From a virus, in the IMG/VR virus record IMGVR_UViG_3300037141_000177, positions 1 to 64,000 of that record: a stretch of DNA of 64,000 nucleotides; one strand, written 5' to 3'. Both the position numbers and the translations under genes were made by a program. A model generated the notes under the pieces. The model had not been told where the DNA came from, did no database searches, and saw only the letters and a program-made list of their open reading frames with translations. Shown here one piece after another: positions 8,271 to 63,747 of the stretch (position 1 is the first letter of the stretch; every line of letters begins with the position of its first letter).

Positions 8271-8286
8271 GTCGTGACGCCAGACT
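8271..8286 (+). promoter_or_regulatory. Candidate phage late promoter
   Basis: GTCGTGACGCCAGACT, 6 bp before ATG 8293. Confidence 0.7.
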
Positions 8287-8292
8287 CGCGTC

Positions 8293-9492
8293 ATGAGCTT
8301 GCTACCGTCTTTCTCCCTGCCGTCTATTGCGATCCCGACCGCGCTCCAGGTGCTCGGCGCTCCCGCGTCGCAGAAGGCCGGTGACCGTCCGATCAGCTTC
8401 TCGCTGGATGATTTGGCGACCGGAACGCTCAATACGATCGCGCTCAATATCCGGCCGGAAGAACTGACGCGCACCCAGGTATCCCGCTTGACCGTCCAGC
8501 AGACGCTGGGCGGTGCTTGGGCTGATGACTTCGGTGCTGGGCTGACGACGATCAATATCAGCGGCCACACGGGCTGGCGCGGCTCGTTCAGCGGTGGCGA
8601 TGGCATGGATCTCTTCGCGGCGTTGAGGGCTCAGGTATTCGATAACTGGCACATTCTGCGCAATCAGGCGCGAGCTAACGGGGTCGATCCGCGTTTCGTG
8701 CAGCTGGTATTCGCAGACGCGCTCGATTCGACGGTGGACGTGGTCGCGCCGATCAGCTTTACGTTGCGGCGGTCCAAGTCCCGCCCGCTGCTGATGCAAT
8801 ACCAGATATCAATGATCGCGTTGGGCGACATTCCGCCGCCCGCACCGCTTGGTTTCCTCGACTCGCTCATTCAGGCGCTCGGGCTCTCGTCTGTCATCGC
8901 CGCGATCAGTTCGATCGTCTCCACTATCAAGGCGGTCGTGGGCTTCGTGGAGTCGAACATCATCGGCCCGATCGTGGCGTTCATGGGCCTGGCGGTCAGT
9001 GTTTTCAACACGGCCGTCGCAATCATCGAAACGCCGGCCGCGCTCGTGAGTCTTGTGCTCGGCGTAGCCACTTCCGTGGCGCAGGTCGGTGTCAACATCT
9101 TCGGAACACTCGGTGCGGTGGTATCGAATTCGACGAATGTGACAGCGAACCTGATGGCTGTAACGGGTGCGTTTTCCGATATTTTTTGCGTGCTTAAAAA
9201 TTCGATCGCGCAAGCCAAGACGTACCCGATCTATACGGGGCTGTATGGCGCGTCGAACTGTTCCAGCACGGTTCCCGGCGCGAGTCCGGCGAGTCAATAC
9301 ACGCTTAGTGGCGTGAACCCCTTCTATGACGTGGTCGGGACGGCCACAACGCCGCCGGTCTCGGTGAGCGTGGCCGCACAGGTCGCCATCGACACGATTA
9401 TCTACACCGATCCGGTGCTGAGTCCGCTCACGCCGGCGCAACTAGCGGCGCTCATCACGACGATCACCAACGGGATCTCGATCACCGCATGA
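8293..9492 (+). CDS. Baseplate/tail tube initiator-like structural protein
   Basis: NIRPEELTR...QQTLGGAWADDFG...ISGHTG motif typical of myovirus baseplate genes; position. Confidence 0.6.
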   Translation: MSLLPSFSLPSIAIPTALQVLGAPASQKAGDRPISFSLDDLATGTLNTIALNIRPEELTRTQVSRLTVQQTLGGAWADDFGAGLTTINISGHTGWRGSFSGGDGMDLFAALRAQVFDNWHILRNQARANGVDPRFVQLVFADALDSTVDVVAPISFTLRRSKSRPLLMQYQISMIALGDIPPPAPLGFLDSLIQALGLSSVIAAISSIVSTIKAVVGFVESNIIGPIVAFMGLAVSVFNTAVAIIETPAALVSLVLGVATSVAQVGVNIFGTLGAVVSNSTNVTANLMAVTGAFSDIFCVLKNSIAQAKTYPIYTGLYGASNCSSTVPGASPASQYTLSGVNPFYDVVGTATTPPVSVSVAAQVAIDTIIYTDPVLSPLTPAQLAALITTITNGISITA

Positions 9493-10100
9493 CGACAATC
9501 TTCGACACGCCACTGGCTGGTTACCGGTTCGTCCAGACGCAATACGGAGACACGCTTCAGGCGTTCGCTGCGCGCGTGCTCGGCGATGCCACAAATTGGG
9601 CTCAGCTTGTTGCTCTGAACGGTTTGCTTCCGCCGTACCTGACCGACGATGCCGACCTCGTATCTGCGACGGTCGTTCTCAACGGCTCTTTCATCATGGT
9701 CCCGGCCTCGTCGCCCAGCTCGGCATCGACTGATCCGGACTCGGTGTTTAAGACGGATCTTCTGCTCACGCCTGACGGTTTCCTCGCGGTAGCGAATGGC
9801 GATTTCGCACTTGTATCCGGCGTGGCGAATCTCACGCAGGCGCTTGAGAACGCGCTCAACACCGACCAAGGCGAGCTGCTTTTTCATGACTCATACGGCA
9901 CGCTCATGCGCCGCCTCATCGGGACCGGTAACGGACCGACCGCCGGTCTGTTGGCTGCTCGATACGCGAAGCAGACCGTATCGGCCGATTCCCGCATCAG
10001 CAGTGTCACCAGCTCAGTGGCCACGGTGCTTGGCGTAGTGATCTCGACGGACGTGCAAGCACAGACGATCGCCGGAACAACTATTCCGATCACCACTTAA
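9489..10100 (+). CDS. Baseplate wedge protein (LysM-like N-terminus plus gp25-like domain)
   Basis: GDTLQAFAARVLGDATNWAQL LysM-like; GDFALVSG...GELLFHDSYG gp25-like. Confidence 0.75.
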   Translation: MTTIFDTPLAGYRFVQTQYGDTLQAFAARVLGDATNWAQLVALNGLLPPYLTDDADLVSATVVLNGSFIMVPASSPSSASTDPDSVFKTDLLLTPDGFLAVANGDFALVSGVANLTQALENALNTDQGELLFHDSYGTLMRRLIGTGNGPTAGLLAARYAKQTVSADSRISSVTSSVATVLGVVISTDVQAQTIAGTTIPITT

Positions 10101-10116
10101 CGGATAAGGAAACGAC

Positions 10117-11238
10117 GTGGCCTTTCAGATCAAGAATTTTGTCTCGATCGTCGCTTCGATGGTGAATCGTATAAAGGCGACGCAGACGCAGGTCGACGAT
10201 TTCAACGATGGAGCAATTGGACGTACGCTGGTCGAAGCACCGGCAATTGAAATTGATCAGCTGTACCAGCAGGCGTTCAACCTCGTGAGCGCTGCGATCC
10301 CGGTGTCGGTCTACACGTCGTTCAGTTTTGCTGCACTCCCGTCGCTCACGGCGACCGGCCTGGTGCTGGTGAGCATCGCGGCGCAGCCCATCGTGACGCT
10401 CGTCTCGGCGGGTTCGCAGTTTACGTCCAGCGGGACGCAAAACGTCTATGCCTCGACCGCGGACGTCTTGATACCGGCTGGGAGCACCAGCGCCGAAGTG
10501 CCGGTTTCGGCCACCTCGAGTGGGGCGGCATCAAACCTCGCGAGTGGCAATGTTTTCACGATGACGCCGGCGGCGACTGGACTCGTCGGTGCGACGAACC
10601 TGTCTGCTTTCGTGAGTGGGCGCGATGTCGAAACCGGCCCCCAGCAGTTCATTCGTTTCAACAACTTTATCTCGACACTGCCGCGGGGCACGGTGCCTTC
10701 GCTCTACTATGGCCTGTCGCTCACGTTTATCTCGGACGCCTTCGGGAACCTCATCGAGCGCGTGGTGTTCTCGAGTGTGGTTGAGCCATACGTGCTCGAT
10801 GATACGCAGCCGATCGCTTTGGTTAATGCCTTCATCCACAACGGGGTAGGGAGCACATCAAGTGCGCTCGTCGCTCAGGCTAACAAGATCATTTACGGGT
10901 ACTACCTGGCGAACGGTACCGCTGTCCCGGGCTGGAAGGCAGCAGGCATTCCAGTGATCATCGCGGCTGCGACCGAGGTGCCCCTCGCTGTCACCGGGCG
11001 GCTCACGGCGCTGGCTGGGTACGACCAGCCGACACTCTGCGGCCTGGCAGTGACGGCAATCTTCACGTACCTCCAAAACCTGAACATCGGCGCGACCGCA
11101 TTGTTCGCGGAGATCAGTGCGTTGGTGATGGCTATCCCGGGCGTGTCGAACTTCGTGTTATCGGCACCGGCGCCCGGAGTTGACACTCCGTCGACGCCGA
11201 GCACGAAAATCATGCCTGGCGTGATCGGAGTGACCTGA
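10117..11238 (+). CDS. Baseplate J-like protein
   Basis: DFNDGAIGRTLVEA, VLIPAG, SGRDVET...RGT, AIPGV motifs. Confidence 0.88.
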   Translation: MAFQIKNFVSIVASMVNRIKATQTQVDDFNDGAIGRTLVEAPAIEIDQLYQQAFNLVSAAIPVSVYTSFSFAALPSLTATGLVLVSIAAQPIVTLVSAGSQFTSSGTQNVYASTADVLIPAGSTSAEVPVSATSSGAASNLASGNVFTMTPAATGLVGATNLSAFVSGRDVETGPQQFIRFNNFISTLPRGTVPSLYYGLSLTFISDAFGNLIERVVFSSVVEPYVLDDTQPIALVNAFIHNGVGSTSSALVAQANKIIYGYYLANGTAVPGWKAAGIPVIIAAATEVPLAVTGRLTALAGYDQPTLCGLAVTAIFTYLQNLNIGATALFAEISALVMAIPGVSNFVLSAPAPGVDTPSTPSTKIMPGVIGVT

Positions 11239-11240
11239 CC

Positions 11241-12344
11241 ATGCGGCTCACGAAAACGCTCCTCGGCTACCTGAATCGGGTTTTCAACAAAGACCCGCTT
11301 GCGTACCTCGCTATCCAGCTTGACTACATGGGCGGCATGACATGGGAGGTCGCCGACGGGATATTCACGACCGTCGTTGTCGGTGGCCCCGGCCAGAACC
11401 TCACGGTCGACTTGTCGACATACACCATCGGCGGGCTCGTCGATTATCTTGCCGCGCAGGCTGGTTATTCAACGCCTTACTCGGATCACACCGCCGGCTC
11501 GAACCTGTCCGCGCTGATCCTGCTCGACGGTACCGGCGACATTTCGCTATCGAACGGCGACCACCTGAACGCGTATTCGAACGTGCTGTGGGCGTACATG
11601 GAGGCGAACGCGGCAGAGCTGCAGCTTGCGGAAACGCAGATTCAGAACCTTGCGCTCGAGATGGCGACCACGACCGCAGACTCGGTCTGGCTTGACACGC
11701 TGGGCGGTTACTACAAGGTGCCGCGCCTGGTGAATGAGCTCGACGGCACGTATGGTCCGCGCATCATTGCGCAGGTGCTGCGGCCGGCCAACAACAACGT
11801 GGCCCTCGAGGCCGCGATACAGGTCTACACGGGGCAGTCCGCACTGGTGACCGATGTGGTGCTGCCTGGTGTTACCGGGAATGTCTACAACGGTGCCCAT
11901 GTACACGACGGGTCAATCTTTTACAACGCAGTGTCGACGCCCATCTACGGGCTGTTCGATGTCGCCTATTCCTACGATCTGATCAATGGTGGCGATCTGT
12001 CCACGTTTCAGGCGACCGTGGTCGGTCTGATCAACACCTTGCGTGCGGCCGGCACGCATATGCGCTCGATCTCGCTTCAAGGGTCGGTGCTCGCCGATAC
12101 GCTCACGCCACCGACCGATTCCTTCGGGAACATGAGTGTCGTGCTCGCGCCGGCCGACACGCTCACGCCACCGACCGATTCAGTGTTGGCAGGCGCTGCG
12201 CTCGCGCCTTTTGCGGACACGCTGGTGCAGCCTTCAGATTCCGACACGCTGACGATCAATTACAACTACACGTACAACGGCGTTCGCACATACAACGGGG
12301 CCATCAACCATCAAGGCGGGACGGTTGGCACTGAGCATCTATAG
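11241..12344 (+). CDS. Baseplate wedge protein (gpI-like)
   Basis: TADSVWLDTLGGYYKVPR...E.D..Y..RI motif; follows J. Confidence 0.7.
   Translation: MRLTKTLLGYLNRVFNKDPLAYLAIQLDYMGGMTWEVADGIFTTVVVGGPGQNLTVDLSTYTIGGLVDYLAAQAGYSTPYSDHTAGSNLSALILLDGTGDISLSNGDHLNAYSNVLWAYMEANAAELQLAETQIQNLALEMATTTADSVWLDTLGGYYKVPRLVNELDGTYGPRIIAQVLRPANNNVALEAAIQVYTGQSALVTDVVLPGVTGNVYNGAHVHDGSIFYNAVSTPIYGLFDVAYSYDLINGGDLSTFQATVVGLINTLRAAGTHMRSISLQGSVLADTLTPPTDSFGNMSVVLAPADTLTPPTDSVLAGAALAPFADTLVQPSDSDTLTINYNYTYNGVRTYNGAINHQGGTVGTEHL
12093..12242 (+). repeat. Intragenic 60-bp period repeat (ADTLTPPTDS x2 plus degenerate third)
   Basis: GCCGAYACGCTCACGCCACCGACCGATTC at 12093 and 12153; degenerate copy at 12213. Confidence 0.8.
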
Positions 12345-12348
12345 CGGG

Positions 12349-12364
12349 GTCGTGACGCCAGACT
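12349..12364 (+). promoter_or_regulatory. Candidate phage late promoter
   Basis: GTCGTGACGCCAGACT before ATG 12377. Confidence 0.7.
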
Positions 12365-12860: not shown

Positions 12861-13679
12861 ATGAAAAGGTGTTGTGACTGCAATTTAGACTTGCCACGCG
12901 AAAACTTTTCAAAGCGATCTGTCGCGAAGGATGGCCTGAAGCCGTGCTGTAAGTCTTGCGACAGCGCTTATATGCGCGCGCGGCGGATCGCTGATCCCGA
13001 AGGAGAGCGCCTTCGAGTTAACACCTATCGGTTAGCCAATGACGCGAAGGTAAAAGCGCGGAAAAAGGTGAGCTACGATCTTGCAGACCCAATTGTCCGT
13101 AAGGAAAAGGGCCGCGCATATTACGAGGCTAACAAAGAGGCGCTGGCCGTGCGACAGCGCGCCTACGCCGTAAAAAACGCAGTGACCGTCGCAGCGGGCC
13201 ATGCCGCCTACTACCGGCAAAACAAGGCTCGCCTCATCGCGCATGGCGCCGCCTATAACAAAACAAACCCTGACGTCCGCAAGCGCGCGCAATCAAACTA
13301 TTCTGAAAAGAATCGTGTTTCTATAAGTGCGAAAGGTGCCGCCTACAGGCGCGCCAATCCGGAGAAGAATTTCGAACGCGGACGAAAGTGGCGGCTCGCA
13401 AACAACGCGCTGGTTAATTCCTACGGGATTCAGAGGCGTGGAATGCGGCTGAAGCGGACTTTGCTTCACGATGCTGAGTTACTTGGTCTGGTCGTGCGCG
13501 AAGGCTATGACGTAGCCCTTCTCCGCGAGGCAGCGACTGGCATCAAATGGGAGCTTGATCATACCGTCCCGCTTCAAAGCAAGCTCGTATCGGGGCTTCA
13601 CAACGAGCACAACCTGCAGGTCATTACCCGTTTCGAGAACCGCAGCAAATCAAACCGTCATTGGCCTGATATGCCATAA
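12861..13679 (+). CDS. HNH endonuclease (freestanding, homing-type)
   Basis: N-terminal CxxC...CKxC, basic helical repeats, C-terminal DHTVPL...GLH..HNLQVI...N..K.N. Confidence 0.88.
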   Translation: MKRCCDCNLDLPRENFSKRSVAKDGLKPCCKSCDSAYMRARRIADPEGERLRVNTYRLANDAKVKARKKVSYDLADPIVRKEKGRAYYEANKEALAVRQRAYAVKNAVTVAAGHAAYYRQNKARLIAHGAAYNKTNPDVRKRAQSNYSEKNRVSISAKGAAYRRANPEKNFERGRKWRLANNALVNSYGIQRRGMRLKRTLLHDAELLGLVVREGYDVALLREAATGIKWELDHTVPLQSKLVSGLHNEHNLQVITRFENRSKSNRHWPDMP

Positions 13680-13695
13680 GTCGTGACGCCATGCT
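13680..13695 (+). promoter_or_regulatory. Candidate phage late promoter
   Basis: GTCGTGACGCCATGCT abutting the HNH stop, before fibre ATG 13719. Confidence 0.65.
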
Positions 13696-13718: not shown

Positions 13719-15632
13719 ATGGCAAGCCAACCAGAAGTCAGCAACTACGACGTAGGCGTTTATCAGCTTCAAACTTCTGACGGGGTTCAGGGTGGCCTCG
13801 GCGGTGCCAGCAACACGCCGCTGTTGAACCTTGCGAACCGCACGAACTGGCTTTACACCCAGCTCAATCTCGTCATATCGGGTGCCACGATCCCGCCGAC
13901 AGTAGCGGCGTTGCTCAGTCCGATCTTCAGCGGCTCGCCGACTTCGCCGACCCCGGCACTTGGTGACAACTCGCTCAAGCTGGCCACCACGGCGTTCGTG
14001 CAGGGCACGGTGAATGGGGCCTTGTCGCTGAGTGTCGCCGGCGGGGTGAACGTCAGCCTCAGTGCGGTTCAAGCGGGTAACGGGATACTGATCCTATCGG
14101 GCGCGTTGACGGCCAATATCGCCGTGATTGTGCCGTCCGCATCGCGTAAATGGATTGTCCAGAACCTGACAACCGGTGCCTTCACGCTCACGGTTAAAAC
14201 GGCGTGTGGCGGTGGGATCGCGATCACTCAGGGCAATACGCAGACGGTCTGGTGCGATGGCATCAGTGTCTTTCTCGCGTCGAACGACTTCCCGAGCGTT
14301 GCACTGCTCGGCACGCCTACATCGCCCACTCCACCGGTCGGCGACCAGTCGACGCGTATTGCCACGACCGGCTTCGCCTACACGCTGAAGAACGGCGTCG
14401 TGTCCGTGCCGGTTGGTGGCAACGTCGACGTGACGCTCACGCCTGCTCAGTACGGCGTGGGCATCCTGTTGCTGACTGGCGTGCTCACCGGGCCGATTAA
14501 CCTGATCGTGCCTGCGCAGGGCGGCACCTACGTCGTTGCCAACAATACGACCGGCGCGTTCGCACTCAACGTGGGGGCGGGTGGGGCAGGGACTAAGGCG
14601 CTCGTGCCACAGGGTTCCTCTGTCGTCGCCTACTGCGATGCGACGAACGTCGTGCTCGCGGGTGCCGCGGCGACGAGTTCGTTCTCGCTCTACACGTTCA
14701 CGGCGACCGCCGGGCAGACCGCATTCAACGCACCGTACACGCCTGGAAACATCGTTTTCATGCAAAACGGCGCCGTGCTGTCGCCGCTAAATTACACAGC
14801 GATCAACGGTGCAAACGTCACGCTTAATGTCGGGGCGACGCTCAACGACGACGTGTCGATCATCGCCTTTGCATCGTTCACCGTAGCAAACGCGCTGCTG
14901 CTCGCCGGCGGCACGATGGCGGGGCCGATCATTCATGCGGGGGGCGACACGGGTGTGACGCCCGCGCAGTTCAATAACTCGACGTTGCTTGCGACGACGG
15001 CATGGGTGACACAGTTAGGGAATATTGCGAGCGGCGTCTATCCGTACAACGCGAATACCGGAATCCCCGGGTCGGCGATTGGCGGCTTGGTTTATGCGTA
15101 CGGCAGCGCCGCGCTGGCTTTCAACCTCCCAGGCTCCGCTGCCTTTGGAATCCCGGTTGGTGCGCAGATAACAGTCCTCAACGCAGCTTCGCTGGCGATG
15201 ACCTTGTCCTCTGTGGGCACGGACAAAATCAACATTGGGTCCGTTCAGACTGCGGCCATCATCATTCAGCCTAACGACACCATTACCCTGACCTGGAATG
15301 CAACGTCATGGTTCGCCTCTGGCGGCGCCACGATGTTGACGAAATCAGGGTTGTTCGCCTCGTCCATAGCTGCACCTGGATGGCAGAAGCTTCCGAGCGG
15401 TCTGATTATTCAGTGGGGGAGTTACACCACGTCTTCTCAGAGCATCGGCGTGACGTTTCCGCTGGCGTTCCCGTCCGCCTGCCTCTCGCTGGCGATGAGC
15501 GGGAATACTTTGACTTCCGCCGCAATGGTCGGGACTACCTCAATCTCCAGGACGGGATTTACCGCCGTTAGTTATGCGTCGGGCGGCACTTATGTGGCGG
15601 TGACTTCTAGCTACATTGCTATCGGATTTTAA
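13719..15632 (+). CDS. Tail fibre protein
   Basis: LANRT N-terminus, GSPTSPTP..GDNS.KLATTAFV repeats, C-terminal GWQKLPSGLIIQWG...FPLAFP domain. Confidence 0.92.
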   Translation: MASQPEVSNYDVGVYQLQTSDGVQGGLGGASNTPLLNLANRTNWLYTQLNLVISGATIPPTVAALLSPIFSGSPTSPTPALGDNSLKLATTAFVQGTVNGALSLSVAGGVNVSLSAVQAGNGILILSGALTANIAVIVPSASRKWIVQNLTTGAFTLTVKTACGGGIAITQGNTQTVWCDGISVFLASNDFPSVALLGTPTSPTPPVGDQSTRIATTGFAYTLKNGVVSVPVGGNVDVTLTPAQYGVGILLLTGVLTGPINLIVPAQGGTYVVANNTTGAFALNVGAGGAGTKALVPQGSSVVAYCDATNVVLAGAAATSSFSLYTFTATAGQTAFNAPYTPGNIVFMQNGAVLSPLNYTAINGANVTLNVGATLNDDVSIIAFASFTVANALLLAGGTMAGPIIHAGGDTGVTPAQFNNSTLLATTAWVTQLGNIASGVYPYNANTGIPGSAIGGLVYAYGSAALAFNLPGSAAFGIPVGAQITVLNAASLAMTLSSVGTDKINIGSVQTAAIIIQPNDTITLTWNATSWFASGGATMLTKSGLFASSIAAPGWQKLPSGLIIQWGSYTTSSQSIGVTFPLAFPSACLSLAMSGNTLTSAAMVGTTSISRTGFTAVSYASGGTYVAVTSSYIAIGF

Positions 15633-17930: not shown

Positions 17931-17955
17931 AAAGCCGCCCTCGCGCGGCTTTTTT
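17931..17955 (+). terminator. Intrinsic terminator ending the tail operon
   Basis: AAAGCCGC-CCTCGC-GCGGCTTTTTT. Confidence 0.8.
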
Positions 17956-17960: not shown

Positions 17961-17976
17961 GTCGTGACGCCAGACT
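17961..17976 (+). promoter_or_regulatory. Candidate late promoter of the lysis cassette
   Basis: GTCGTGACGCCAGACT immediately after the terminator. Confidence 0.7.
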
Positions 17977-18059
17977 CAAATCGTGCGTAAGGCGCACATC
18001 GAGGCGGTTGAGGCGGACGTTAAGAAGCTTGGTTAGTGGGTCGGTTCAGGGAGCACTTC

Positions 18060-18752
18060 ATGGATGGTAAAGACGCCCGTCGCAGCGCCATCGAAGGTCC
18101 GGAGTGGTCGCTCGAATCATTGGAAATTTTTCTCACGAAAATATCTAACGAGCGTGATCGAACCTATCAGCAGCGCTGGGAAGCTTCAGAGAAGGCCACA
18201 GTAACGGCGCTGAACGCCGCGAAGGAAGCCGTCGCCGCTGCGCTGCTGGCGCAAAAAGAAGCGGTTACGACCGCCTTCACTGCGCAGGAGAAAGCGGTTG
18301 CGGCGGCGCTAACGGCGGCAGAGCGTGCGGTATCAAAAGCCGAGACCGCATCAGAAAAACGCTTCGACTCGATCAACGAGTTTCAGTCCCAGCTTACCAA
18401 TCAAGCGACTACGTTTTTGCCTCGGGCTGAATTTGATCGGACCTTGCGAGCCATGTCCGACAAGCTCGACATCATGGCCGCAACACTGGCGGATAAAACG
18501 GACACCAGTTCCAAGGCTTTAGAGGAAAGGATCCAGTCGTCCGCGCGTGCTCTGGACGCCAAAAGCGACGCGAACGCGCTGAAAATCGACTCGAACAACA
18601 AGGCGTTCGGAGCACGCCTCGATGACTTGCGCACGTTCAAGGATTCGAGTTCCGGCCGCTCGCAGGGACTCAATGCGGGCTGGTCCTATTTACTCGGACT
18701 GGTTGCTTTGATCGGTACGTTGGTGACGATTATCTTGGTGATCAAACGATGA
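18060..18752 (+). CDS. Coiled-coil protein with C-terminal membrane anchor (lysis-associated)
   Basis: AAKEAV/AQKEAV/AQEKAV repeats; single C-terminal TM; first gene of lysis cassette. Confidence 0.6.
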   Translation: MDGKDARRSAIEGPEWSLESLEIFLTKISNERDRTYQQRWEASEKATVTALNAAKEAVAAALLAQKEAVTTAFTAQEKAVAAALTAAERAVSKAETASEKRFDSINEFQSQLTNQATTFLPRAEFDRTLRAMSDKLDIMAATLADKTDTSSKALEERIQSSARALDAKSDANALKIDSNNKAFGARLDDLRTFKDSSSGRSQGLNAGWSYLLGLVALIGTLVTIILVIKR

Positions 18753-18961
18753 ATATTCGCCTGATTGATGACATACGCCACATCCACACGTTCTACTCGT
18801 TTTGGGCGTTCGTTGCGATCTTCGGATTCTCGACGCTCGAGGCGGCGGCTCCGCTCTTGCAGGCATGGGTGCCGGTATGGGTGTATCCGCCCGTCTTGGG
18901 CCTGCTGGCGATAGCAGGCGCGCTCGTGCGCTGCATCAAGCAGGATCCGCCGCATGCCTGA
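18749..18961 (+). CDS. Holin (probable pinholin)
   Basis: 70 aa with two TM segments, directly before endolysin. Confidence 0.75.
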   Translation: MNIRLIDDIRHIHTFYSFWAFVAIFGFSTLEAAAPLLQAWVPVWVYPPVLGLLAIAGALVRCIKQDPPHA

Positions 18962-19478
18962 TCCGATCCCCACACGCGGCCCGGTATCGAAGCGCACGCT
19001 GGTCGCGATCGTCGGGGCGGGCGCCGCGGCGATCGTCTTGGGAATCTCGAGCACGCACGAGGGTGTGCGCCTCACGCCGTACGACGACGTGCTGGGCGGT
19101 CATGTGGCGTCGGTGTGCTTTGGCGAGACGAACGTCGCCATGCGCCGGTACACGCTGGGCGAATGCAAGCAGTTGCTCGCTACCAGCCTGGCGGGGTACG
19201 CGGCCGGTGTGCAAGCCTCGACACCTGGATTCGACGCGCTCACGGACGGGCAGAAAGCCGCGGCGATCGACTTCGCGTACAACGCGGGGCTGGGCACCTG
19301 GCAGGTGTCCAGTATCCGCAACGCGTACGCGCGGCATGATTTCCCGGCCGCGTGTCAGCGCTTCATGCTTTACACCTTCACGAATCACGGCAAGATCGAT
19401 TGCAACATCGCGGCCAACAAATGCGCCGGCATTCCCGCCCGTCGCCGTGCTGAACGGTCCGCTTGCCTCGGAGACTGA
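18954..19478 (+). CDS. SAR endolysin (GH24 lysozyme)
   Basis: Ala/Gly-rich N-terminal TM; HEGVRLTPYDD, CFGET, DFAYNAG, RRRAE motifs. Confidence 0.92.
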   Translation: MPDPIPTRGPVSKRTLVAIVGAGAAAIVLGISSTHEGVRLTPYDDVLGGHVASVCFGETNVAMRRYTLGECKQLLATSLAGYAAGVQASTPGFDALTDGQKAAAIDFAYNAGLGTWQVSSIRNAYARHDFPAACQRFMLYTFTNHGKIDCNIAANKCAGIPARRRAERSACLGD

Positions 19479-19479: not shown

Positions 19480-19971
19480 ATGCTTTCGTTTCTAGTTGCC
19501 CATTGGGGCCTGTTGCTGGGCGGTGGCGGGGTTCTCGCCGCTGTGGTGGGCCTGTGCGTGCTGGTCGGTCCTGCGGTGCTGCTGGCGCGCTGGCGGCTCG
19601 TCTTAGGCGGCGCAGTGGTGCTCGTGGCCGGGGCGACAGTCGTGTATCTGTGGCTCGCGCTCGAGGCGACGACCGCGAAGCTCATCGTCGCGCAGGCGAA
19701 CTACGCCACGGTCACCGGGCAGAACGTCACCCTTAACGCCGATAACAAGAACCTGGCGGCGCAGACCCTCTTGCAGAGCAAGTCGATCCAGCTTGTCGCC
19801 GATGGTGCGCGGGAGGCCAAAACTGCGGCCGACGCTGCGCTGGCCACCGCCGTCGCGCAGCAGTCCGTCGACCAGTCCAGCATCGTCGCGCTGCAGGCAC
19901 GCATGAAGGATCCCAAAACCAACGCGGGGAGCTGTGATGACGAGATCGCTCGTATTCGGTCCACTTTGTAG
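19480..19971 (+). CDS. i-spanin (Rz-like)
   Basis: N-terminal TM segments plus coiled coil with C-terminal Cys; follows endolysin. Confidence 0.75.
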   Translation: MLSFLVAHWGLLLGGGGVLAAVVGLCVLVGPAVLLARWRLVLGGAVVLVAGATVVYLWLALEATTAKLIVAQANYATVTGQNVTLNADNKNLAAQTLLQSKSIQLVADGAREAKTAADAALATAVAQQSVDQSSIVALQARMKDPKTNAGSCDDEIARIRSTL

Positions 19972-41671: not shown

Positions 41672-41687
41672 GTCGTGACGCGAGACT
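41672..41687 (+). promoter_or_regulatory. Candidate late promoter
   Basis: GTCGTGACGCGAGACT upstream of the HU-like gene. Confidence 0.65.
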
Positions 41688-41726: not shown

Positions 41727-42014
41727 ATGAACAGGCTGCAGTTTGTTGAGGCTGTCGCGAAGATTTCGAAGCTCGGTGTCAAGCAGGTGGCGTCGGTGTT
41801 GCTCGGCATCGAGGAAGTCGCGGCAGCGGAAATTAAAGAATTCGGCCTGGTGCGCGTTCCCGGCCTGGTGATGATCAAGCGGCTCGACCGCGGCGAGCGC
41901 CTGGTGCGCAATCCGAAAACGGGCGAAGAGTTTCTGATGGGTGCCACGATTACGGTGCGATCGAAGCCTTCGCTGGCGTTTTCGGACCGCATCAAGCTTG
42001 AGAATCCTGTTTGA
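41727..42014 (+). CDS. HU/IHF-family DNA-binding protein
   Basis: MNRLQFVEAVA, VRVPG, RNPKTGE. Confidence 0.85.
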   Translation: MNRLQFVEAVAKISKLGVKQVASVLLGIEEVAAAEIKEFGLVRVPGLVMIKRLDRGERLVRNPKTGEEFLMGATITVRSKPSLAFSDRIKLENPV

Positions 42015-53311: not shown

Positions 53312-53327
53312 GTCGTGACGCCAAGCT
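53312..53327 (+). promoter_or_regulatory. Candidate late promoter
   Basis: GTCGTGACGCCAAGCT before ATG 53360. Confidence 0.65.
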
Positions 53328-53359: not shown

Positions 53360-53959
53360 ATGGCTCGGCCATCGATTAGTAAAGAACAGTGGACGGTTGC
53401 TCGCGCAATTTGGGAGAGCGATCCGGTCGTGACATTCGCGGAGATCGCCGAGGACTTTGGCGTCACGCGTCAGGCCGTCCAACTTCACGCCCGACGCCAC
53501 GGTTGGGTGAAGCGCCTCGATAAGCAGACCGTTTCGGATCTGGCTCACGCTGCGGCGGATTCAAAACTTACAGGATCGCCGGCGGACGGATCCAAGCCGG
53601 CGGGGTCTGTTGTCGCGGACACGCTTGAAAAACGCATCACGCGCGCTTTGCCTGATCTGCCGCTCGGTGCGTCGCCTGAAGACGCGCAGAAGGCTGCTGA
53701 AGCCGCCGCGATCGATAGACGGGCGGAGGTGTTGGGTACGCACCGGAAGGAGCTACTGGCCGCTCGCACGCTTCTGTATGGCGCGATCAAATCGAAGGTG
53801 CTCGACGAGGCCAAGCAGGTAAAGATCGCGGCCGAGGCGATGAAGATCATCCAGGACGCCGAACGAAAAGCCTGGGGTCTGGATTCCGATGAAAAGGGCG
53901 GTCGTCCGCAGGTCCAGGTGATCGTGCATCGACGCGCGGGTAAGCCGAATGGACACTAA
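53360..53959 (+). CDS. Terminase small subunit-like HTH protein
   Basis: QW...R..WE......EIA..FGVTRQAV...A...GW; ERKAWGLD. Confidence 0.6.
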   Translation: MARPSISKEQWTVARAIWESDPVVTFAEIAEDFGVTRQAVQLHARRHGWVKRLDKQTVSDLAHAAADSKLTGSPADGSKPAGSVVADTLEKRITRALPDLPLGASPEDAQKAAEAAAIDRRAEVLGTHRKELLAARTLLYGAIKSKVLDEAKQVKIAAEAMKIIQDAERKAWGLDSDEKGGRPQVQVIVHRRAGKPNGH

Positions 53960-55214
53960 TCGGGTCTTGTTCGGGGATTGTCGCGCGTCGCTGCGCCTGA
54001 TGGCCGCTGAAGGTATGCAGGTGCAAACGTGCGTCACGTCGCCTCCGTACTACGGCTTGCGTGACTATGGCGTGGATGGCCAGCTCGGCCTCGAAGAAAC
54101 GCCCGACGAGTACGTTGCCGCGCTGGTGGACGTGTTCCGCTGCGTGCGCGACGTGCTGGCCGACGACGGCACGCTCTGGCTGAACATCGGCGACAGCTAC
54201 GCGGCGAACCGCGGCTATCAGGTCGCCTCCACGCTTATGAATGGCAAGGCCACGAACGAAGCGCAGGCCGCTGGCGGTCGTGGCATGAAGGCCGCTGACT
54301 ATGGGGTGAAGCCGAAGGACCTGATCGGTATCCCGTGGATGGTGGCGTTCGCGCTGCGCGCTGACGGCTGGTATCTGCGCTCGGACATCATCTGGTCGAA
54401 GGGCAACCCCATGCCTGAGAGCGTCACGGACCGGCCGACGAAAAGCCACGAGTACTTGTTTCTGCTCGCAAAGTCCGAGCGCTACTACTACGACCACGAA
54501 GCGGTGAAGGAGCCCGCCGTGAGCGATCACGCGTCGGGTAACGGCTTCAAGCGCGACGCGCGCTTGTCCTACAAAGACGCCAATGGCGCGCGCGGCAACG
54601 ATGAACAGTGGACGGATATTGGCGGTAGACGTAATCGCCGGTCGGTGTGGAGCGTCAATACGAAGCCGTACAAGGGTGCCCACTTCGCCACGTTCCCGCC
54701 GGGACTGGTCGAGCCTTGCATCCTCGCGGGCACAAGTGCGGAGGGGCATTGCCCGGTCTGCAGTGCGCGTTGGCAACGTGTCACAGACCGTCAGGCGACC
54801 GGCTGGAATGGGAGCAGATATGGCGAGGCGGCGCAGGCGGCGACCGGCGGGGCGATCAGCGGCGGCACTGCGCGCAGCACGCTCGGGTCGAGTAACGGCA
54901 GGCTCACCGCCCAATACCTCACGACCGGCTGGCAACCGACCTGCGCATGCGGTGCCGATTCGGTGCCCGACGTGGTGCTCGATCCGTTTATGGGCAGCGG
55001 CACGACTGCGGCTGTTGCTGTCGACCTTCGTCGGGGCTTCCTCGGCTGCGAGCTGAACCCCGAATACGAACATCTTCAAACCGAGCGGATAACGCGCGCG
55101 CGTGCGGCGCTCGCCGAGCGGCTTGCTGCCGCCTACGCCGCTACCGCGCAGGGCGATCTGTTGAACCCAAATTCGTCTCACACCGTAGTTCAATTCGAAG
55201 GAGCAAAGGCATGA
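53949..55214 (+). CDS. Amino (N4-C/N6-A) DNA methyltransferase, beta class
   Basis: TSPPY catalytic motif, HFATFP, DPFMGSGTT. Confidence 0.92.
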   Translation: MDTNRVLFGDCRASLRLMAAEGMQVQTCVTSPPYYGLRDYGVDGQLGLEETPDEYVAALVDVFRCVRDVLADDGTLWLNIGDSYAANRGYQVASTLMNGKATNEAQAAGGRGMKAADYGVKPKDLIGIPWMVAFALRADGWYLRSDIIWSKGNPMPESVTDRPTKSHEYLFLLAKSERYYYDHEAVKEPAVSDHASGNGFKRDARLSYKDANGARGNDEQWTDIGGRRNRRSVWSVNTKPYKGAHFATFPPGLVEPCILAGTSAEGHCPVCSARWQRVTDRQATGWNGSRYGEAAQAATGGAISGGTARSTLGSSNGRLTAQYLTTGWQPTCACGADSVPDVVLDPFMGSGTTAAVAVDLRRGFLGCELNPEYEHLQTERITRARAALAERLAAAYAATAQGDLLNPNSSHTVVQFEGAKA

Positions 55215-55411
55215 CGACCACTGTAAAGATCACCGTTTCGCAAGTGCATGAAGGCGCGCATGTCGAGGTGCAATACATCGATGCGACGTCGAAGAAGCCG
55301 GTCGGACTCGCTGCAAAGCTTGCGCTCGGTGAGAGCGCCGATGTTGTGTGCCACGACGCAGGGTCGCTGCTGATAGAAGAGGTTGGCGGCATTTACCAGC
55401 GCGGCGTCTGA
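55211..55411 (+). CDS. Hypothetical protein
   Basis: ATGA-coupled, SD AAGGAG. Confidence 0.55.
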   Translation: MTTTVKITVSQVHEGAHVEVQYIDATSKKPVGLAAKLALGESADVVCHDAGSLLIEEVGGIYQRGV

Positions 55412-55456
55412 GCATGCGACGCCTTCCTGCGCGGACCGACCTGTTCGGAGGTTCAT

Positions 55457-55663
55457 ATGCCGCTTGACGCTGCGCAGGAGGCCGTGTGGGCGGCTCAACG
55501 TATCGAAAGCTATGCGCGCTTCTATGCTGCGGTGGCATCGGCTAAGGCGGGCAGCTTCGCGCTTGGGCGAGCGATTGCCTCGCGGGTGCGTGCGGCGTCT
55601 GGCGACGAAGCGGCCGAGTACGCGCTTGCTGAGCTGCGGTCCTGCACGGAGCTGTGGAAATGA
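55457..55663 (+). CDS. Hypothetical protein
   Basis: SD GGAGG. Confidence 0.55.
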   Translation: MPLDAAQEAVWAAQRIESYARFYAAVASAKAGSFALGRAIASRVRAASGDEAAEYALAELRSCTELWK

Positions 55664-55893
55664 TCATAAGCACGGGCAAAGAGGCAGGCGCTGAATGGGC
55701 ATTCAAGCTGCTCGCGCGGGGGAAGTCGCGCACGGGCCTTGGGATGCCGCTTGAGGTCACGCGCTGCGCGACCGATGCGATTCGGTCCGGTGCCGGTTAT
55801 CGGTTTATGCGTGACGCGCCGGAAGACGTTCGCGAGCAATACGCACTGATGTACGACGGGATCATCGCGGCGGAGGGGCAGCGTGACTTTTAG
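55660..55893 (+). CDS. Hypothetical protein
   Basis: ATGA-coupled. Confidence 0.5.
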   Translation: MIISTGKEAGAEWAFKLLARGKSRTGLGMPLEVTRCATDAIRSGAGYRFMRDAPEDVREQYALMYDGIIAAEGQRDF

Positions 55894-57316
55894 CGCGATC
55901 ACCTTCGGCTCAGTGTGTTCGGGCATTGAAGCGGCGAGTGTGGCGTGGGTTCCGCTTGGCTGGCGCGCGGTGTGGTTCGCGGAGATAGACGCGTTCCCGT
56001 CCGCGGTGCTTGCGCATCGGCATCCGTCGGTGCGGAACCTGGGGGATATGACGCTGCTGGTGGCACGCGTGCAGTCGGGGGAGATTGAGGCGCCCGACGT
56101 CCTGGTGGGCGGCACACCGTGTCAGGCGTTCTCGCTGGCGGGGCTTCGTGCTGGTTTGAATGATCCACGCGGTCAGCTTGTGCTGCGGTTTTTGGAATTG
56201 GCAAATGCAATTGACGCAGCTCGACTTGTTCTCGGAAAGCCCGCGTGTGTCGTCGTCTGGGAGAACGTCTACGGCGTGCTCAGCGACAAGACCAACGCCT
56301 TCGGATTCTTACTTGGTGGGCTGGCCGGCGAAGATGTTCCACTTGAGCCGCCAAGGGACGCCCGTGGCCTGAGAAAGCCTTGGTCGCACGCTGGTGCTGT
56401 GTATGGACCCCAAAGAGCAGCGGCATGGCGGCTCCTCGACGCCCAATATTTCAGAGTGGCACAACGACGCCGCCGTTGTTTCCTTGTGGGCAGTGCTCGA
56501 GCGGGGTTCGATCCAGCGAAGGTACTTTTTGACTTCGAAGGCGTGCGCCGGGATTCTCCGCCGAGCCGAGATGCGGGGGAAAACGTTACCGGCACTCTTA
56601 GCGCGCGCACTTCAGCAGGTGGCGGACTTGGGACCGACTTTGAACTAGCCGGTGGCCTGCAGGTGTGCTCGCCGGTCGTGTGCCTGGCGCACGGGCAGGG
56701 AGGGGCCGAGGTGTCGGAGGACCGGTCGCCGACGCTCACCTGCAACCACGAGGCACCGATCGCCGTGTATGCGTTCCAGCCGCGCATCGCGCGCAATGGT
56801 CGGGGCGATATGGGCGAGCTCGTCAATGCGTTGACGGCCACTGCTGGCGAGACGGGCAAGGGTGATGCTGCGCCGTGCGTCGCACTCGCGTTCAAGGCTT
56901 CGCACTTCACGCGCGGTAAGGATGGCGCTCCGTCTGAGGTCTGTCCGCCGCTGTCGGCCGACGCCGACAAGGGCGATCAGGACACGCTGGTGTGTGCGCC
57001 CACGGGGATCGCCTTCGACGCCCGTCAAGACCCGGTTTCAAACGATCACGTCGCAGGCGCGCTCGGCTCATCCAGCCCGCAATCGCAGGCCGTGTGCGTC
57101 GCCGGAGGCATGGCGGTGCGTCGTCTCACGCCGGTCGAGTGCGAGCGGCTTCAGGGATTCGCGGACGGCTACACAAACGTTCCGTACCGCGGCAAGCCTG
57201 CTGCGGACGGTCCGAGATACAAGGCGCTTGGCAATTCTATGGCCGTGCCGTGCATGGCCTTTCTTGGGCGCCGCATCGCGGTCGCTATTGGTGAGCTTAT
57301 TCGGGAGCACGCATGA
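55883..57316 (+). CDS. C5-cytosine DNA methyltransferase
   Basis: SVCSGIEA, GGTPCQ, ENV, QRRRR, RRLTPVECERLQGF, YKALGNS. Confidence 0.93.
   Translation: MTFSAITFGSVCSGIEAASVAWVPLGWRAVWFAEIDAFPSAVLAHRHPSVRNLGDMTLLVARVQSGEIEAPDVLVGGTPCQAFSLAGLRAGLNDPRGQLVLRFLELANAIDAARLVLGKPACVVVWENVYGVLSDKTNAFGFLLGGLAGEDVPLEPPRDARGLRKPWSHAGAVYGPQRAAAWRLLDAQYFRVAQRRRRCFLVGSARAGFDPAKVLFDFEGVRRDSPPSRDAGENVTGTLSARTSAGGGLGTDFELAGGLQVCSPVVCLAHGQGGAEVSEDRSPTLTCNHEAPIAVYAFQPRIARNGRGDMGELVNALTATAGETGKGDAAPCVALAFKASHFTRGKDGAPSEVCPPLSADADKGDQDTLVCAPTGIAFDARQDPVSNDHVAGALGSSSPQSQAVCVAGGMAVRRLTPVECERLQGFADGYTNVPYRGKPAADGPRYKALGNSMAVPCMAFLGRRIAVAIGELIREHA
56403..56648 (+). CDS. Overlapping +1-frame ORF inside the C5 MTase (beta-polypeptide-like)
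   Basis: SLWAVLE...RYFLTSKACAGILRRAE.RGK.LP..L..AL. Confidence 0.5.
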   Translation: MDPKEQRHGGSSTPNISEWHNDAAVVSLWAVLERGSIQRRYFLTSKACAGILRRAEMRGKTLPALLARALQQVADLGPTLN

Positions 57317-57603
57317 GAACGATCTACAAGTACCCGCTCGAGCGCGGCGTGACTCGCCTCGATGTTCCGCCTGGTTCGACGCTGGTGTCGGTTGACATAC
57401 AGAACGGCGAGCCGATTGGCTGGGTGATGCACGACCGGGAGCGTCTGCAGGCGAAGGAGCGCGAGGCGATCATCGTGACTATCGCGCGTACGGGTGGCGA
57501 CATACCTCGGGAGTGCGGAAGCTATCTGTCGACGTTTTTCGAGCACGGCGGGCTGTACGTGTGGCACGCGTTCGCCCATTACGAAGGGCCGGTGAATGGC
57601 TGA
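57313..57603 (+). CDS. Small phage hypothetical protein
   Basis: MRTIYKYPL...TG...YL.T.....VWH. Confidence 0.7.
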   Translation: MRTIYKYPLERGVTRLDVPPGSTLVSVDIQNGEPIGWVMHDRERLQAKEREAIIVTIARTGGDIPRECGSYLSTFFEHGGLYVWHAFAHYEGPVNG

Positions 57604-58963
57604 TATCTCGATGCCGACCGCGCTGGTGATGCGTAACGTCGCGGACCTGTTGCCGTATGCGAGGAATGCCAGAACGCATTCGGATGAGCAGCTGGCGCAG
57701 ATCGTCGCGTCGATGACCGAGTTTGGCTTCACGAACCCGATCCTCGTCTCCGGTGACGGGATCCTCGCGGGGCACGGTCGGATTCTAGCGGCCGAGAAGC
57801 TCGGGCTGACGGTGGTGCCGACGATCGACCTGTCGCATCTGTCCGAGACGCAGCGGCAGGCGTACGTGCTCACTGACAACAAGATCGCGCTCAATGCGGG
57901 ATGGGATCTCGACATGCTGCGCGTTGAGCTGGAGGAGCTGGAAGCGAAGGGGTTTGATCTGTCGATCACGGGCTTCGGCGCGGACGAGCTCGAGGAGCTC
58001 CTGCATCCGGATCTGGAAGCGCCTGGTGGTGATCCGGACGAAGTGCCGGAGACGCCCACGGTCGCGCACTCGGTGCTTGGCGACGTGTGGATTTGTGGCG
58101 CGCACAAGGTCATGGTTGGAGATGCGCTGTCGGTCGATGCCTGGGACGCGCTGATGGGCACGGAGAAGGCGGACGTGGTGTGGACGGACCCGCCGTACAA
58201 CGTTGATTACGAGTCGAAGCTGGCCGGGAAAATCAAGAACGACAAGATGGGCGACGGTGCCTTTCATGAGTTCCTGCTGGGTGCCTTTGTGGCGCTGTTC
58301 ACGGTCATGAAGTCGGGTGCGGCGATCTATATCGCGCATGCCGATACGGAGGGCTACAACTTCCGCAGCGCCTTCCTGAAGGCCGGGTTGAAGCTGTCGG
58401 GTTGCCTCATCTGGAAGAAGAACACGCTGGTCCTCGGGCGTAGCCCGTACCAGTGGATCCACGAGCCGATTCTGTACGGATGGAAGCCGGGAAAAGCGCA
58501 CCGATGGTTCGGCGGCCGCAAGCAAACGACGGTCACGGATTTAGGCGATGCGTCGCCGTTCGAACTGCAGCCCGACGGTCGCTGGGTGGTGCGCGTCGGT
58601 GAGGAGACGCTTGTCGTGTCCGGCGATGCGCTGGTGGAGCGCGTTGAGACATCGCTGATCTATCACGACAAGCCTGCGCGCTCGGCACTTCATCCCACGA
58701 CGAAACCGGTCGGACTTGTCACTCGTCTTTTGAAGAATTCCGCGCGTCGCAACGACATTGTGGTCGATGCCTTTGGCGGTTCCGGCACGACCTTGATCGG
58801 CTCTGAAATGGTCGGCATGTGCGCGCGCCTGATGGAGCTTGACCCTCGCTTTGTCGACGTGACCTGCGCTCGTTACCTTGCCTACACGGGCCGCGTGCCG
58901 GTGAGTGCGGTGACCGGTCTGGAATTCCCGCGCGGCGTGCTCGAGCGGCTTAACGCCAAGTAA
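57596..58963 (+). CDS. ParB-like N-terminal domain fused to adenine DNA methyltransferase
   Basis: PYARNARTHS, FGFTNPIL, AGHGR; TDPPYNV, HPTTKP, DAFGGSGTT. Confidence 0.92.
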   Translation: MADISMPTALVMRNVADLLPYARNARTHSDEQLAQIVASMTEFGFTNPILVSGDGILAGHGRILAAEKLGLTVVPTIDLSHLSETQRQAYVLTDNKIALNAGWDLDMLRVELEELEAKGFDLSITGFGADELEELLHPDLEAPGGDPDEVPETPTVAHSVLGDVWICGAHKVMVGDALSVDAWDALMGTEKADVVWTDPPYNVDYESKLAGKIKNDKMGDGAFHEFLLGAFVALFTVMKSGAAIYIAHADTEGYNFRSAFLKAGLKLSGCLIWKKNTLVLGRSPYQWIHEPILYGWKPGKAHRWFGGRKQTTVTDLGDASPFELQPDGRWVVRVGEETLVVSGDALVERVETSLIYHDKPARSALHPTTKPVGLVTRLLKNSARRNDIVVDAFGGSGTTLIGSEMVGMCARLMELDPRFVDVTCARYLAYTGRVPVSAVTGLEFPRGVLERLNAK

Positions 58964-60508: not shown

Positions 60509-60783
60509 AGTACGGTCCTTTCAACATCGTCGCGAAAGCGCACGGCGACGCAATGGTCATCGAGGTCAGCCAGAAGCCGGTCGCGCCGCTCACCAACCGC
60601 TCGCGTCGCCGTGAGCGGCGGTTTAAAGCGATCCATAAGCGCGAGCTGGTGAAAGGGCTGATGCGGTTCAAGGGCGAGCGCTACACGCCGGAGTTGTTCG
60701 CGCTGATTATGGACACTACGTTCTCGATAACGGACCGCATCAACGAGCGATTCGGGCACCTGACGCCTTGGGGCGTGACGTGA
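60505..60783 (+). CDS. Hypothetical protein
   Basis: ATGA-coupled. Confidence 0.55.
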   Translation: MKYGPFNIVAKAHGDAMVIEVSQKPVAPLTNRSRRRERRFKAIHKRELVKGLMRFKGERYTPELFALIMDTTFSITDRINERFGHLTPWGVT

Positions 60784-60904
60784 CCTTTTACTTTCTGCTG
60801 TATCTGCACTGGTGCGTTCTGTTCTTTGATCCGCGCGCGCCGGGGGAACGGCACCACCCGCTGTTAGGTCATCGGGTCAACACCTGGCGATGAGGCCGTG
60901 AAAA

Positions 60905-61357
60905 ATGATTGAACGTAAGTTGTCCGACTTGGAGTTTCTCGCCGTCGCGGATTCTATGTACACGTTTGATAGAAGCGGCGTGAACTTCGCAATCGGGGCG
61001 GATATCAACGCCTTCGTGCATGACGTCCGATTGATCATGGAAGAGCGCAACGCCGCGAACGCGCGAGCAGCCGCATCGGCCGTTGATGCGATCAAATATC
61101 GGGCGCAACGCGACACACAAATCCAGTTGAAGCTTGGTTTGGCGGCCGAGACGGGCGAACTGCGAGCGCGCCTTGGCCTCGTGCGCACGGAGCGCGACGA
61201 TCTGCATCTCGCGCTGGGTGCGATGAAGGTGAAGCCGGCGGTGTCGGCATTGGGCACGGCGAAGATTGTCGTGCGTCCTGACGGTTCGATTGAAATACAG
61301 GCTGATCAGGTGTCGATCAGCGGTCCCGTGTCTGTCGCGGCTCTCTCGTCGCCCTAG
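60905..61357 (+). CDS. Hypothetical coiled-coil protein
   Basis: 150 aa ORF. Confidence 0.6.
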   Translation: MIERKLSDLEFLAVADSMYTFDRSGVNFAIGADINAFVHDVRLIMEERNAANARAAASAVDAIKYRAQRDTQIQLKLGLAAETGELRARLGLVRTERDDLHLALGAMKVKPAVSALGTAKIVVRPDGSIEIQADQVSISGPVSVAALSSP

Positions 61358-63079: not shown

Positions 63080-63095
63080 GATTACTGCTGCCTTG

Positions 63096-63377
63096 TCACT
63101 TGCCTTCGGGGCGACGTGCCTTGCTAAGCATGGCATCTCGAAGAATGTCGTTCAGGCGGCTCTGATAGCCCTTGCCTTGGCTCTTGAGCCATTCCAGTAC
63201 GTCGGCGTCGATACGCACCGTCAATTGTTGTTTGACGGGTCGATAAAACCTGCCGCGCGTGGCTCCCTGCCAGTCCTGCGCGTTGGTCGCCGGGATGTCG
63301 GAGAAGTCGATCTCAGATTCCGGTTTCGCGGCCAACGCTGCGAGTTCGCGGCGAATTGATTCAGGCACCTTGTTCAT
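63096..63377 (-). CDS. brnA: BrnA antitoxin
   Basis: IDFSDIP, RPVKQQLTVRIDADVLEWLK..G.GYQSRLN..LR. Confidence 0.92.
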   Translation of the reverse strand: MNKVPESIRRELAALAAKPESEIDFSDIPATNAQDWQGATRGRFYRPVKQQLTVRIDADVLEWLKSQGKGYQSRLNDILRDAMLSKARRPEGK

Positions 63378-63657
63378 AAATTTTCCTTTCTTGCTTAGTC
63401 GCACGTCGCGCCGAGATGATGCGGATGTGTTCCTCGCCGCTCTCTGCTTCGTACCATGTGTGAGCTACTAAAAGCAGGACGACGTCGCCTGCCATGCCAA
63501 CGGTCTGCCACCGTGCTTCGCCGTTCTCGATGCGATCCTGCCGTGAGACGTGCAGGGGGTCATCGAACACAAGGCTGGCGGCTTCAAAACTGACGCCGTG
63601 GTTGCGCTGGTTGCTCTTGTTTTTGGCGGCGTCCCATGAAAACAATTTTAGCTCCAT
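63361..63657 (-). CDS. brnT: BrnT toxin (ribonuclease)
   Basis: FSWD..KN.SN..NHGVSFE.A..VF.DP, GE.RW, IRIISARRAT..ER. Confidence 0.93.
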   Translation of the reverse strand: MELKLFSWDAAKNKSNQRNHGVSFEAASLVFDDPLHVSRQDRIENGEARWQTVGMAGDVVLLLVAHTWYEAESGEEHIRIISARRATKQERKIYEQGA

Positions 63658-63659
63658 AT

Positions 63660-63671
63660 TTGTAGTTACAA
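63660..63671. promoter_or_regulatory. Palindrome upstream of brnT, candidate autoregulatory operator
   Basis: TTGTA-GT-TACAA 2 bp from the start codon. Confidence 0.45.
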
Positions 63672-63731
63672 TAGTGTAGCTCTAATTTGGTCAAAGTTCA
63701 ACGGCCGGTTAAACGCCTGAAAGCCTGTGCC

Positions 63732-63747
63732 GTCGTGACGCCAGACT
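63732..63747 (+). promoter_or_regulatory. Candidate late promoter
   Basis: GTCGTGACGCCAGACT. Confidence 0.7.

Follow-up and report, generated by a model that had tools for sequence, protein, structure and literature searches.

In phage T4, middle promoters carry a MotA box at −30 that replaces the −35 element (MotA/AsiA), and late promoters (gp55/gp33) have only an extended −10, TATAAATA. In P2, 186 and P4, the small zinc-binding proteins Ogr, B and Delta switch on several late operons that are read by the host sigma-70 polymerase; Ogr-type sites are dyads centred near −55. Phage P1 has 11 dispersed late promoters in which a −10 element is accompanied by a 9-bp repeat at −22 that is bound by Lpa, with SspA as co-activator (PMC10695390, PMC1891329). 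The Thermus phage Lalka27a uses about 16 late promoters with a TAGGGT −10, a conserved C at −25 and no −35; measured starts lie 6 nt after the −10 and are mostly leaderless, the authors infer a phage factor that alters the specificity of the host polymerase, and they cite the late promoters of phiYS40 as similar (bioRxiv 10.64898/2026.04.20.719267). Could a further phage group dispense with the −35 element by a box and proteins of its own? Here we analyse bases 1–64,000 (the window, 64,000 nt) of a linear 73,971-bp virus record, IMG/VR IMGVR_UViG_3300037141_000177, in which a 16-base motif, GTCGTGAY-N3-A-N3-T, recurs in front of operons of late type. From its distribution and geometry, this motif very probably defines a phage-specific promoter class that lacks a −35.

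The exact 10-mer GTCGTGACGC occurs seven times on the + strand of the window, at 8271, 12349, 13680, 17961, 41672, 53312 and 63732. Shuffled sequence holds a mean of 0.59 copies on both strands, and none of 100 shuffles reached eight. The hexamers that follow the seven copies are CAGACT (four times), CATGCT, GAGACT and CAAGCT, always with A at position 2 and T at position 6. The refined motif comprises the 8-base box GTCGTGAC, a 2-nt spacer and this minimal −10 hexamer. Over the whole record the full pattern is found eight times forward and never in reverse, against 0.18 expected on both strands; the eighth copy lies at genome position 64903, past the window end. All seven window copies are intergenic and directed at the next + strand gene. 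The intergenic regions that hold 8271, 53312 and 63732 are each preceded by − strand genes, the first of them also lying beyond a two-way terminator (7649–7673), and a scan of the regions of 8271 and 53312 found no sigma-70 consensus promoter. An additional exact 10-mer on the − strand (355..364) runs antisense within the gene of the tail sheath; as no A/T hexamer follows it, we regard it as a chance occurrence outside the system. Intergenic candidates with one mismatch lie at 2296, 60772 and 69832, such sites being only about 3-fold above chance. A scan of IMG/VR for the exact 16-mer gave 25 contigs with one match each, which we estimate to be about chance level and did not use.

The original prediction for this DNA had listed the seven exact positions, the invariant A and T of the hexamer and the intergenic, codirectional placement, and all were found again; only the antisense copy was missing from it. 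It had also described a degenerate copy at 2296, which is present as GACGTGAC-GC-CACAAT and is exact at the matching place of a relative, had placed copies after terminators or inserted genes, as is the case at 17961 and 13680, and had put the HU and methyltransferase operons under the motif, where copies at 41672 and 53312 do precede them. Its general description, a phage-specific and strand-specific signal with a −10-like hexamer and a box at about −22 to −15, stands, and the strand bias persists outside the window, as the count for the whole record shows.

Is the motif peculiar to this record? Relatives were found through the protein encoded at 8293, and eleven related genomes were downloaded, scanned whole and turned so that the motif strand reads forward. 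They span 46–65% G+C, and the identity between shared proteins is often as low as 30–40%. Ten of the eleven carry the motif and show the same bias of strand, the downloaded and scanned genomes totalling 106 forward sites and 1 reverse. Forward and reverse counts are 14/0, 8/0, 9/0 and 8/0 in the relatives G001, G002, G003 and G004, 10/1 in Bordetella phage PHB04, 12/0 and 13/0 in Pseudomonas phages Dolphis and Touem01, 9/0 in Enterobacter phage phiT5282EW, 7/0 in Yersinia phage fHe-Yen8-01 and 8/0 in Aeromonas phage ST4. Shuffling of seven genomes gave an expectation of 0.2–0.4 per genome, and backwards-read controls were zero where they were run on the full pattern. Escherichia phage ECML-606-1, for which only the pattern search was made, has 0/9 in the orientation of its record, all on the strand of the gene for protein A introduced below.

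Conservation is also positional. Upstream of the homologues of gene 8293, ten of ten distinct relatives keep the succession of box, 2 nt, nAnnnT, 6–7 nt and ATG, one of them (L044) with a mismatch in the box; further upstream the sequences cannot be aligned. G001, a complete genome, has counterparts at matching places for six of the seven exact window sites, for the probable copy at 2296 and for 64903, in intergenic DNA that has otherwise diverged. A motif scan before head genes outside the window had been suggested with the original prediction, and in G001 copies stand before the operons of the large terminase, the portal, the protease/capsid and the sheath region, so that a late or morphogenesis label is reasonable; we infer lateness from this gene content. 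The promoter class appears to be conserved across ~90-kb phages of many Proteobacteria, and we did not find it described: the papers found on PHB04, Dolphis, Mecenats66 and Touem01 report no promoter, and a literature search for the motif string returned unrelated primer matches only.

The anatomy of the motif is that of a −10 element with a box close by. In the 106 aligned sites there is no information content upstream of the box (tabulated to 14 nt upstream, about −36), with neither a −35 nor an UP element, and an alignment anchored on the ATG has no shared sequence to about −70. The A and T of the hexamer are invariant in the 106 sites by definition of the search; that they matter follows from the strand bias. 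Motif position 9 favours G, and position 15 is A or C. An ATG follows the hexamer after 6 nt (28 sites) or 7 nt (11 sites), together 39 of 106, where chance would give about 1.6 per offset. Where a leader is present (64 sites), A is over-represented at the seventh (30/63) and eighth positions after the hexamer and under-represented at the fifth and sixth; in this record, six of eight sites have A at position 7. This geometry fits a −10 element of the sigma-70 family with a start about 7 nt downstream and often a leaderless mRNA, so that the gene at 8293 and its homologues would be leaderless. Near-leaderless expression of 8293 had been predicted for this locus, and the comparison with relatives supports it. 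Promoters of extracytoplasmic function (ECF) sigma factors were considered and rejected: there is no AAC-type −35 at 16–17 bp upstream of the −10 and no conservation upstream of the box. On geometry and strand bias we also rejected a sigma-54 promoter and a methylation target.

What might read the box? Only two non-structural proteins of the record are conserved in all relatives, and they are always adjacent, A then B. Protein A (40658–41251, + strand, 197 residues) is rich in cysteine, with invariant C36, C55, C58, C87, C90, C114 and C117 and a highly conserved basic core; protein B (41255–41659, + strand, 134 residues) is zinc-ribbon-like, with invariant H37, C39, C42, C60, C63, C75 and C77. 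Both contain invariant CxxC pairs. Together they close the early rightward operon, beside the CI-like repressor and the replication genes, and the first motif copy, 41672, begins 13 nt after the stop of B. Neither protein has a match in Pfam, PHROGs or NCBIfam, nor among PDB sequences below an E of 0.1. Foldseek against the PDB gave nothing at E ≤ 0.001, the best hit of a wide structural search with A had a Z of 3.0, and Atlas matches were confined to unnamed, mostly viral clusters.

A and the motif tend to occur together. The A family counts 845 clusters at 50% identity (E ≤ 0.001), with homologues in prophages and plasmids of Alpha-, Beta- and Gammaproteobacteria. In 32 loci fetched by way of A, about 520 kb in all, we counted 34 full motifs, 25 of them co-oriented with A, where the chance rate per genome would, by our estimate, give about 2. 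In four loci without B (Paraburkholderia, Burkholderia, Cupriavidus) a motif copy stands 67–194 nt before the A gene, and three of these loci have another copy in divergent orientation; A of Cupriavidus ulmosensis would itself be leaderless. Natural A-B fusions exist (P0167, P0081, P0104). A model of the A-B complex scored 0.66 against 0.00 for the best control, one of three runs giving 0.02; the 0.66 mark is reached by 58 of 80 solved complexes and by 2 of 110 mismatched pairs. Agreement between runs was at least 0% of contacts, and the partner predicted local distance difference test score (pLDDT) was at least 46. The model supports, but does not establish, binding of A to B. In it, A contacts B through its C-terminal domain, and it is this domain that is different in forms without B.

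Long forms of A (400–680 residues; P0072–P0126, loci L114 and L125) carry low-complexity C-terminal extensions with further cysteine motifs, in which no Pfam domain was found (forms of 444–676 residues). They occur without B, often behind a motif copy of their own. As a more speculative thought, those with a divergent promoter as partner could belong to satellite-like elements that respond to, and feed back on, the A/B of a helper phage, as P4 Delta does with P2. Close homologues of A also stand on stand-alone contigs of isolate assemblies, 89.8, 90.3 and 92.2 kb long, from Burkholderia anthina, Pararobbsia silviterrae and Paraburkholderia sp.; contigs of phage size fit an extrachromosomal, phage-plasmid lifestyle.

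How does this compare with the systems outlined above? With P1 it shares many dispersed late promoters, a −10 without a −35, a short element near −22, the ~90-kb myovirus format and, if A/B are the activators, a factor made from an early, repressor-controlled operon. The elements themselves differ. In the P1 record, LPhot has AAGTTACTT, 9 nt and AATAAT, and LPpac has ATGTGACTT, 4 nt and TACCCT, whereas our box, GTCGTGAY, is an imperfect repeat of 8 bp at a fixed distance of 2 nt, as against 4–9 nt in these two P1 examples. We know of no leaderless starts in P1. Within the part of the record's open reading frames that was scanned, no homologue of Lpa (gp10) emerged, profiles of A and B giving an hhalign probability of 0.07% against it. 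The P1 Lpa analogy of the original prediction is thereby divided: it holds as a way of working, a −22 element plus a −10, and fails as membership, since neither candidate protein is related to Lpa. The system works like that of P1 but lies outside the P1 family.

For the leaderless aspect, Lalka27a is the closest experimentally mapped parallel. It differs in host phylum and sequence; the present motif has a full 8-bp upstream box and a loose hexamer, and its starts are read from sequence whereas those of Lalka27a were measured. None of the Thermus phage records in the phage collection yielded a homologue of A. Like the Ogr proteins, A and B are small, phage-encoded and of zinc type, and would act as activators, but there is no −55 dyad here, no sequence being shared out to about −70, and A and B match no PHROG family, Ogr-type included. 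T4 is similar in that the −35 is replaced or dispensed with, and differs in the position and sequence of the element. PHROG and Pfam scans detected no relatives of AsiA, MotA or gp55, and we know of no sliding-clamp link for the motif system, unlike that of T4 late transcription.

Taking these observations together, we consider it probable that the motif is read by the host holoenzyme together with a phage factor. The nAnnnT hexamer would serve as the −10 element for host RNA polymerase holoenzyme using sigma-70, and the box at −22 to −15, at its fixed 2-nt distance, would substitute for the −35 and be read by a phage-encoded factor; transcription would begin about 7 nt after the hexamer, and the gene at 8293 would be translated from a leaderless mRNA. 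We lean slightly towards A, with or without B, as the factor that reads the box, and suggest that A works with B. In the resulting cascade the early operon would supply A/B, which would then turn on all motif promoters, that is, those of HU, the methylases, the genes at 63773 and 64943, tape measure, baseplate, tail fibre and lysis. The mechanism as a whole we judge to be likely. A bolder version, which we offer tentatively and would ourselves rather doubt, is that A and B are the two subunits of a new, zinc-based factor for promoter specificity, which some 850 sequence clusters from phages and prophages of Alpha-, Beta- and Gammaproteobacteria would encode and which docks on host RNA polymerase, reads the −22 to −15 box and creates a large leaderless late regulon. 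To our knowledge no characterised activator uses the −22 to −15 spacer position in this way.

Several points weigh against this mechanism. Start site and timing are deduced by sequence logic. Hairpins in leadered sites begin at −5 to +1 of the hexamer in 31 of 54 cases, control positions being flat; with a start 7 nt downstream the RNA would miss the 5' arm, so the hairpins would fit an earlier start. CAGACT-like hexamers are poor −10 elements. Morganella phage Mecenats66, the eleventh relative, has no exact motif even though A and B are present: three or four one-mismatch candidates (ATCGTGAT, GTAGTGAT) are all that it contains, and a de novo search for a replacement motif found nothing clear. 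No fold for binding DNA or polymerase is recognisable in A or B, which makes the case for their role one of guilt by association. Finally, where the motif stands before A, A may just as well be simply one of the genes under its control.

Could the phage instead replace sigma-70 altogether, with an initiation factor of its own that reads the whole 16-bp signal? Such a sigma-like factor, for which T4 gp55 is a precedent, might be A/B or another protein, or, as a variant, a cryptic phage polymerase. The compact, contiguous signal without a −35 would suit it, as would hairpins that start right at the hexamer and a box so asymmetric and strictly spaced that one surface might read box and hexamer together. 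Against this, the models of A and B are zinc-ribbon or beta-rich and have no helical sigma-2-like domain, and the invariant A/T pair with an A at +7 is the geometry of sigma-70 region 2. Two AT-richer relatives do encode an ECF-like sigma factor of 190 residues (Sigma70_r2, E about 2e−16; G002 83240–83446, G003 86049–86258), but its gene lies about 0.9 kb downstream of a motif copy and is absent from this record (G000), G001 and PHB04, in which no sigma domain was detected. As for a polymerase, no family match was obtained (PF00940, the T7-type enzyme, had none in five genomes, although control genomes gave none either), and no large non-structural open reading frame is conserved across the relatives. 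We regard replacement of sigma-70 as unlikely.

A promoter that needs only the host, either constitutive or bound at its box by a factor common to Proteobacteria while A and B act elsewhere, seems less likely still. A box that is invariant in hosts from Alpha- to Gammaproteobacteria could be explained by a conserved host surface, and Mecenats66, with A and B retained and no exact motif, points the same way; against it, no host regulator that uses such a site is known to us, unaided initiation is improbable from weak hexamers that have neither a −35 nor a TG extension, and the motif is hugely enriched around A homologues, including unrelated contexts and the region upstream of A itself. Least probable of all, and in our view very improbable, is an action on RNA or on DNA outside initiation, as a processing or stability site, a loading site for Q-like antitermination, or a methylation or packaging mark. 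Hairpins directly after many copies, some with T-runs, and the three methyltransferases of the phage would accord with such a role. It leaves the A-N3-T pair, the 6–7 nt to the ATG and the A at position 7 without a function, though; divergent intergenic copies have no upstream co-directional transcript to process, and about 8–14 copies per genome would be unexpected for a Q-type system. Nor is there a sign of a restriction or methylation target, since the bare 8-mer, without promoter context, occurs at chance frequency on both strands and inside genes.

As a very probable promoter signal, the motif offers a ready transcription map for a poorly studied, widespread clade of ~90-kb myoviruses and phage-plasmids. 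Although translation without a leader is held to be exceptional in Proteobacteria, the motif predicts dozens of leaderless late mRNAs there, and it makes A/B a testable candidate for a promoter-specificity factor of a new kind. Tests by reporter, footprint and in vitro transcription are straightforward, because members of the clade infect E. coli (ECML-606-1) and Pseudomonas putida (Dolphis). For orthogonal control of expression, a compact 16-bp promoter that is active across hosts and needs no more than one or two small proteins would be a useful switch.

The individual copies, all on the + strand, are as follows. At 8271..8286 the box GTCGTGAC (8271–8278) is followed by GC and CAGACT (8281–8286); transcription is predicted to start on the A of the 8293 ATG, which would make the baseplate/virion-protein operon 8293–12344, with its baseplate gene at 11241–12344, leaderless. 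The copy at 12349..12364 (CAGACT) begins 5 nt past the stop of that baseplate gene and would serve 12377/12389–12841 and the HNH/endonuclease VII-like gene; its counterpart in G001 is at 65133. At 17961..17976 (CAGACT) the motif comes right after a terminator-like hairpin (17931–17952) and would serve 18036–19478, including the endolysin-like gene (18954–19478). The copy behind protein B (41672..41687, GAGACT) would serve the HU-like gene (41727–42014) and the non-coding stretch behind it; its G001 counterpart, 87716, also precedes an HU gene. Two copies occupy divergent intergenic regions: 53312..53327 (CAAGCT; G001 6883) would serve the DNA-binding/TerS-like gene 53360–53959 and three DNA methyltransferase/ParB-like genes (53949–58963), and 63732..63747 (CAGACT) would serve a gene for 366 residues from 63773. 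Beyond the window, 64903 is a near-duplicate of the 63732 promoter plus leader and stands before the gene of a 1476-residue WGR-domain protein; the G001 counterparts of these two are 18355 and 19867. A probable weaker copy with one box mismatch, 2296..2311, precedes the tape-measure gene (2367–5252), where G001 has an exact copy at 55390. A possible but uncertain copy, 60772..60787, reads GGCGTGAC-GT-GACCTT with one mismatch and is intergenic, before 60905–61357.

The copy at 13680..13695 (CATGCT) begins at the base after the stop of the HNH/endonuclease VII-like gene (12861–13679) and would serve the tail fibre gene (13719–15632). The HNH gene, which separates the 12377 gene from that of the tail fibre, is absent from all relatives; in G001 these two are direct neighbours and no separate promoter precedes the fibre gene. 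It seems that a new promoter copy either arrived together with the insertion or repaired it.

The 63732 and 64903 promoters share a near-identical leader, CGAATGAACAYATTCGGGGT, and an M-A-H protein start (window 63748–63775; genome 64919–64945). G001 has CGATTCATCGTAATCGGGG at the matching place (19883–19908), its stem retained despite changes on both sides, and the shared stem could represent either a conserved hairpin or an operator that overlaps the site where transcription is predicted to start. The 1476-residue protein (genome 64922–69352) has its WGR domain (PF05406) at residues 755–816 and is common to G001, Dolphis and Mecenats66. In four phages a strong, terminator-like hairpin with a T-run and then an ATG come directly after the hexamer (Dolphis 28081, ST4 86750, phiT5282EW 91372, fHe-Yen8-01 30137). 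Such hairpins may stop or stabilise transcripts arriving from upstream while passing those of the local promoter, and so insulate the unit from read-through.

By PHROG and Pfam scans, the record is a myovirus with a temperate-looking control region. It is about 80% complete, with 60% G+C; peat metagenomes contain near-identical DNA, and 12 kb of the window, compared with phage records by megablast, had no match. The same scans identify the tail sheath gene (48–1214). The control region comprises a CI-like repressor (37666–38712, − strand), RecT and exonuclease genes, also on the − strand, and a replication initiator at 39073 in the rightward operon. A palindrome, TTGCGT-aca-ACGCAA, lies at 8223–8237, 34 bp upstream of the 8271 box, and could tie the 8271 promoter, or the divergent gene 7705–8175, to a repressor.

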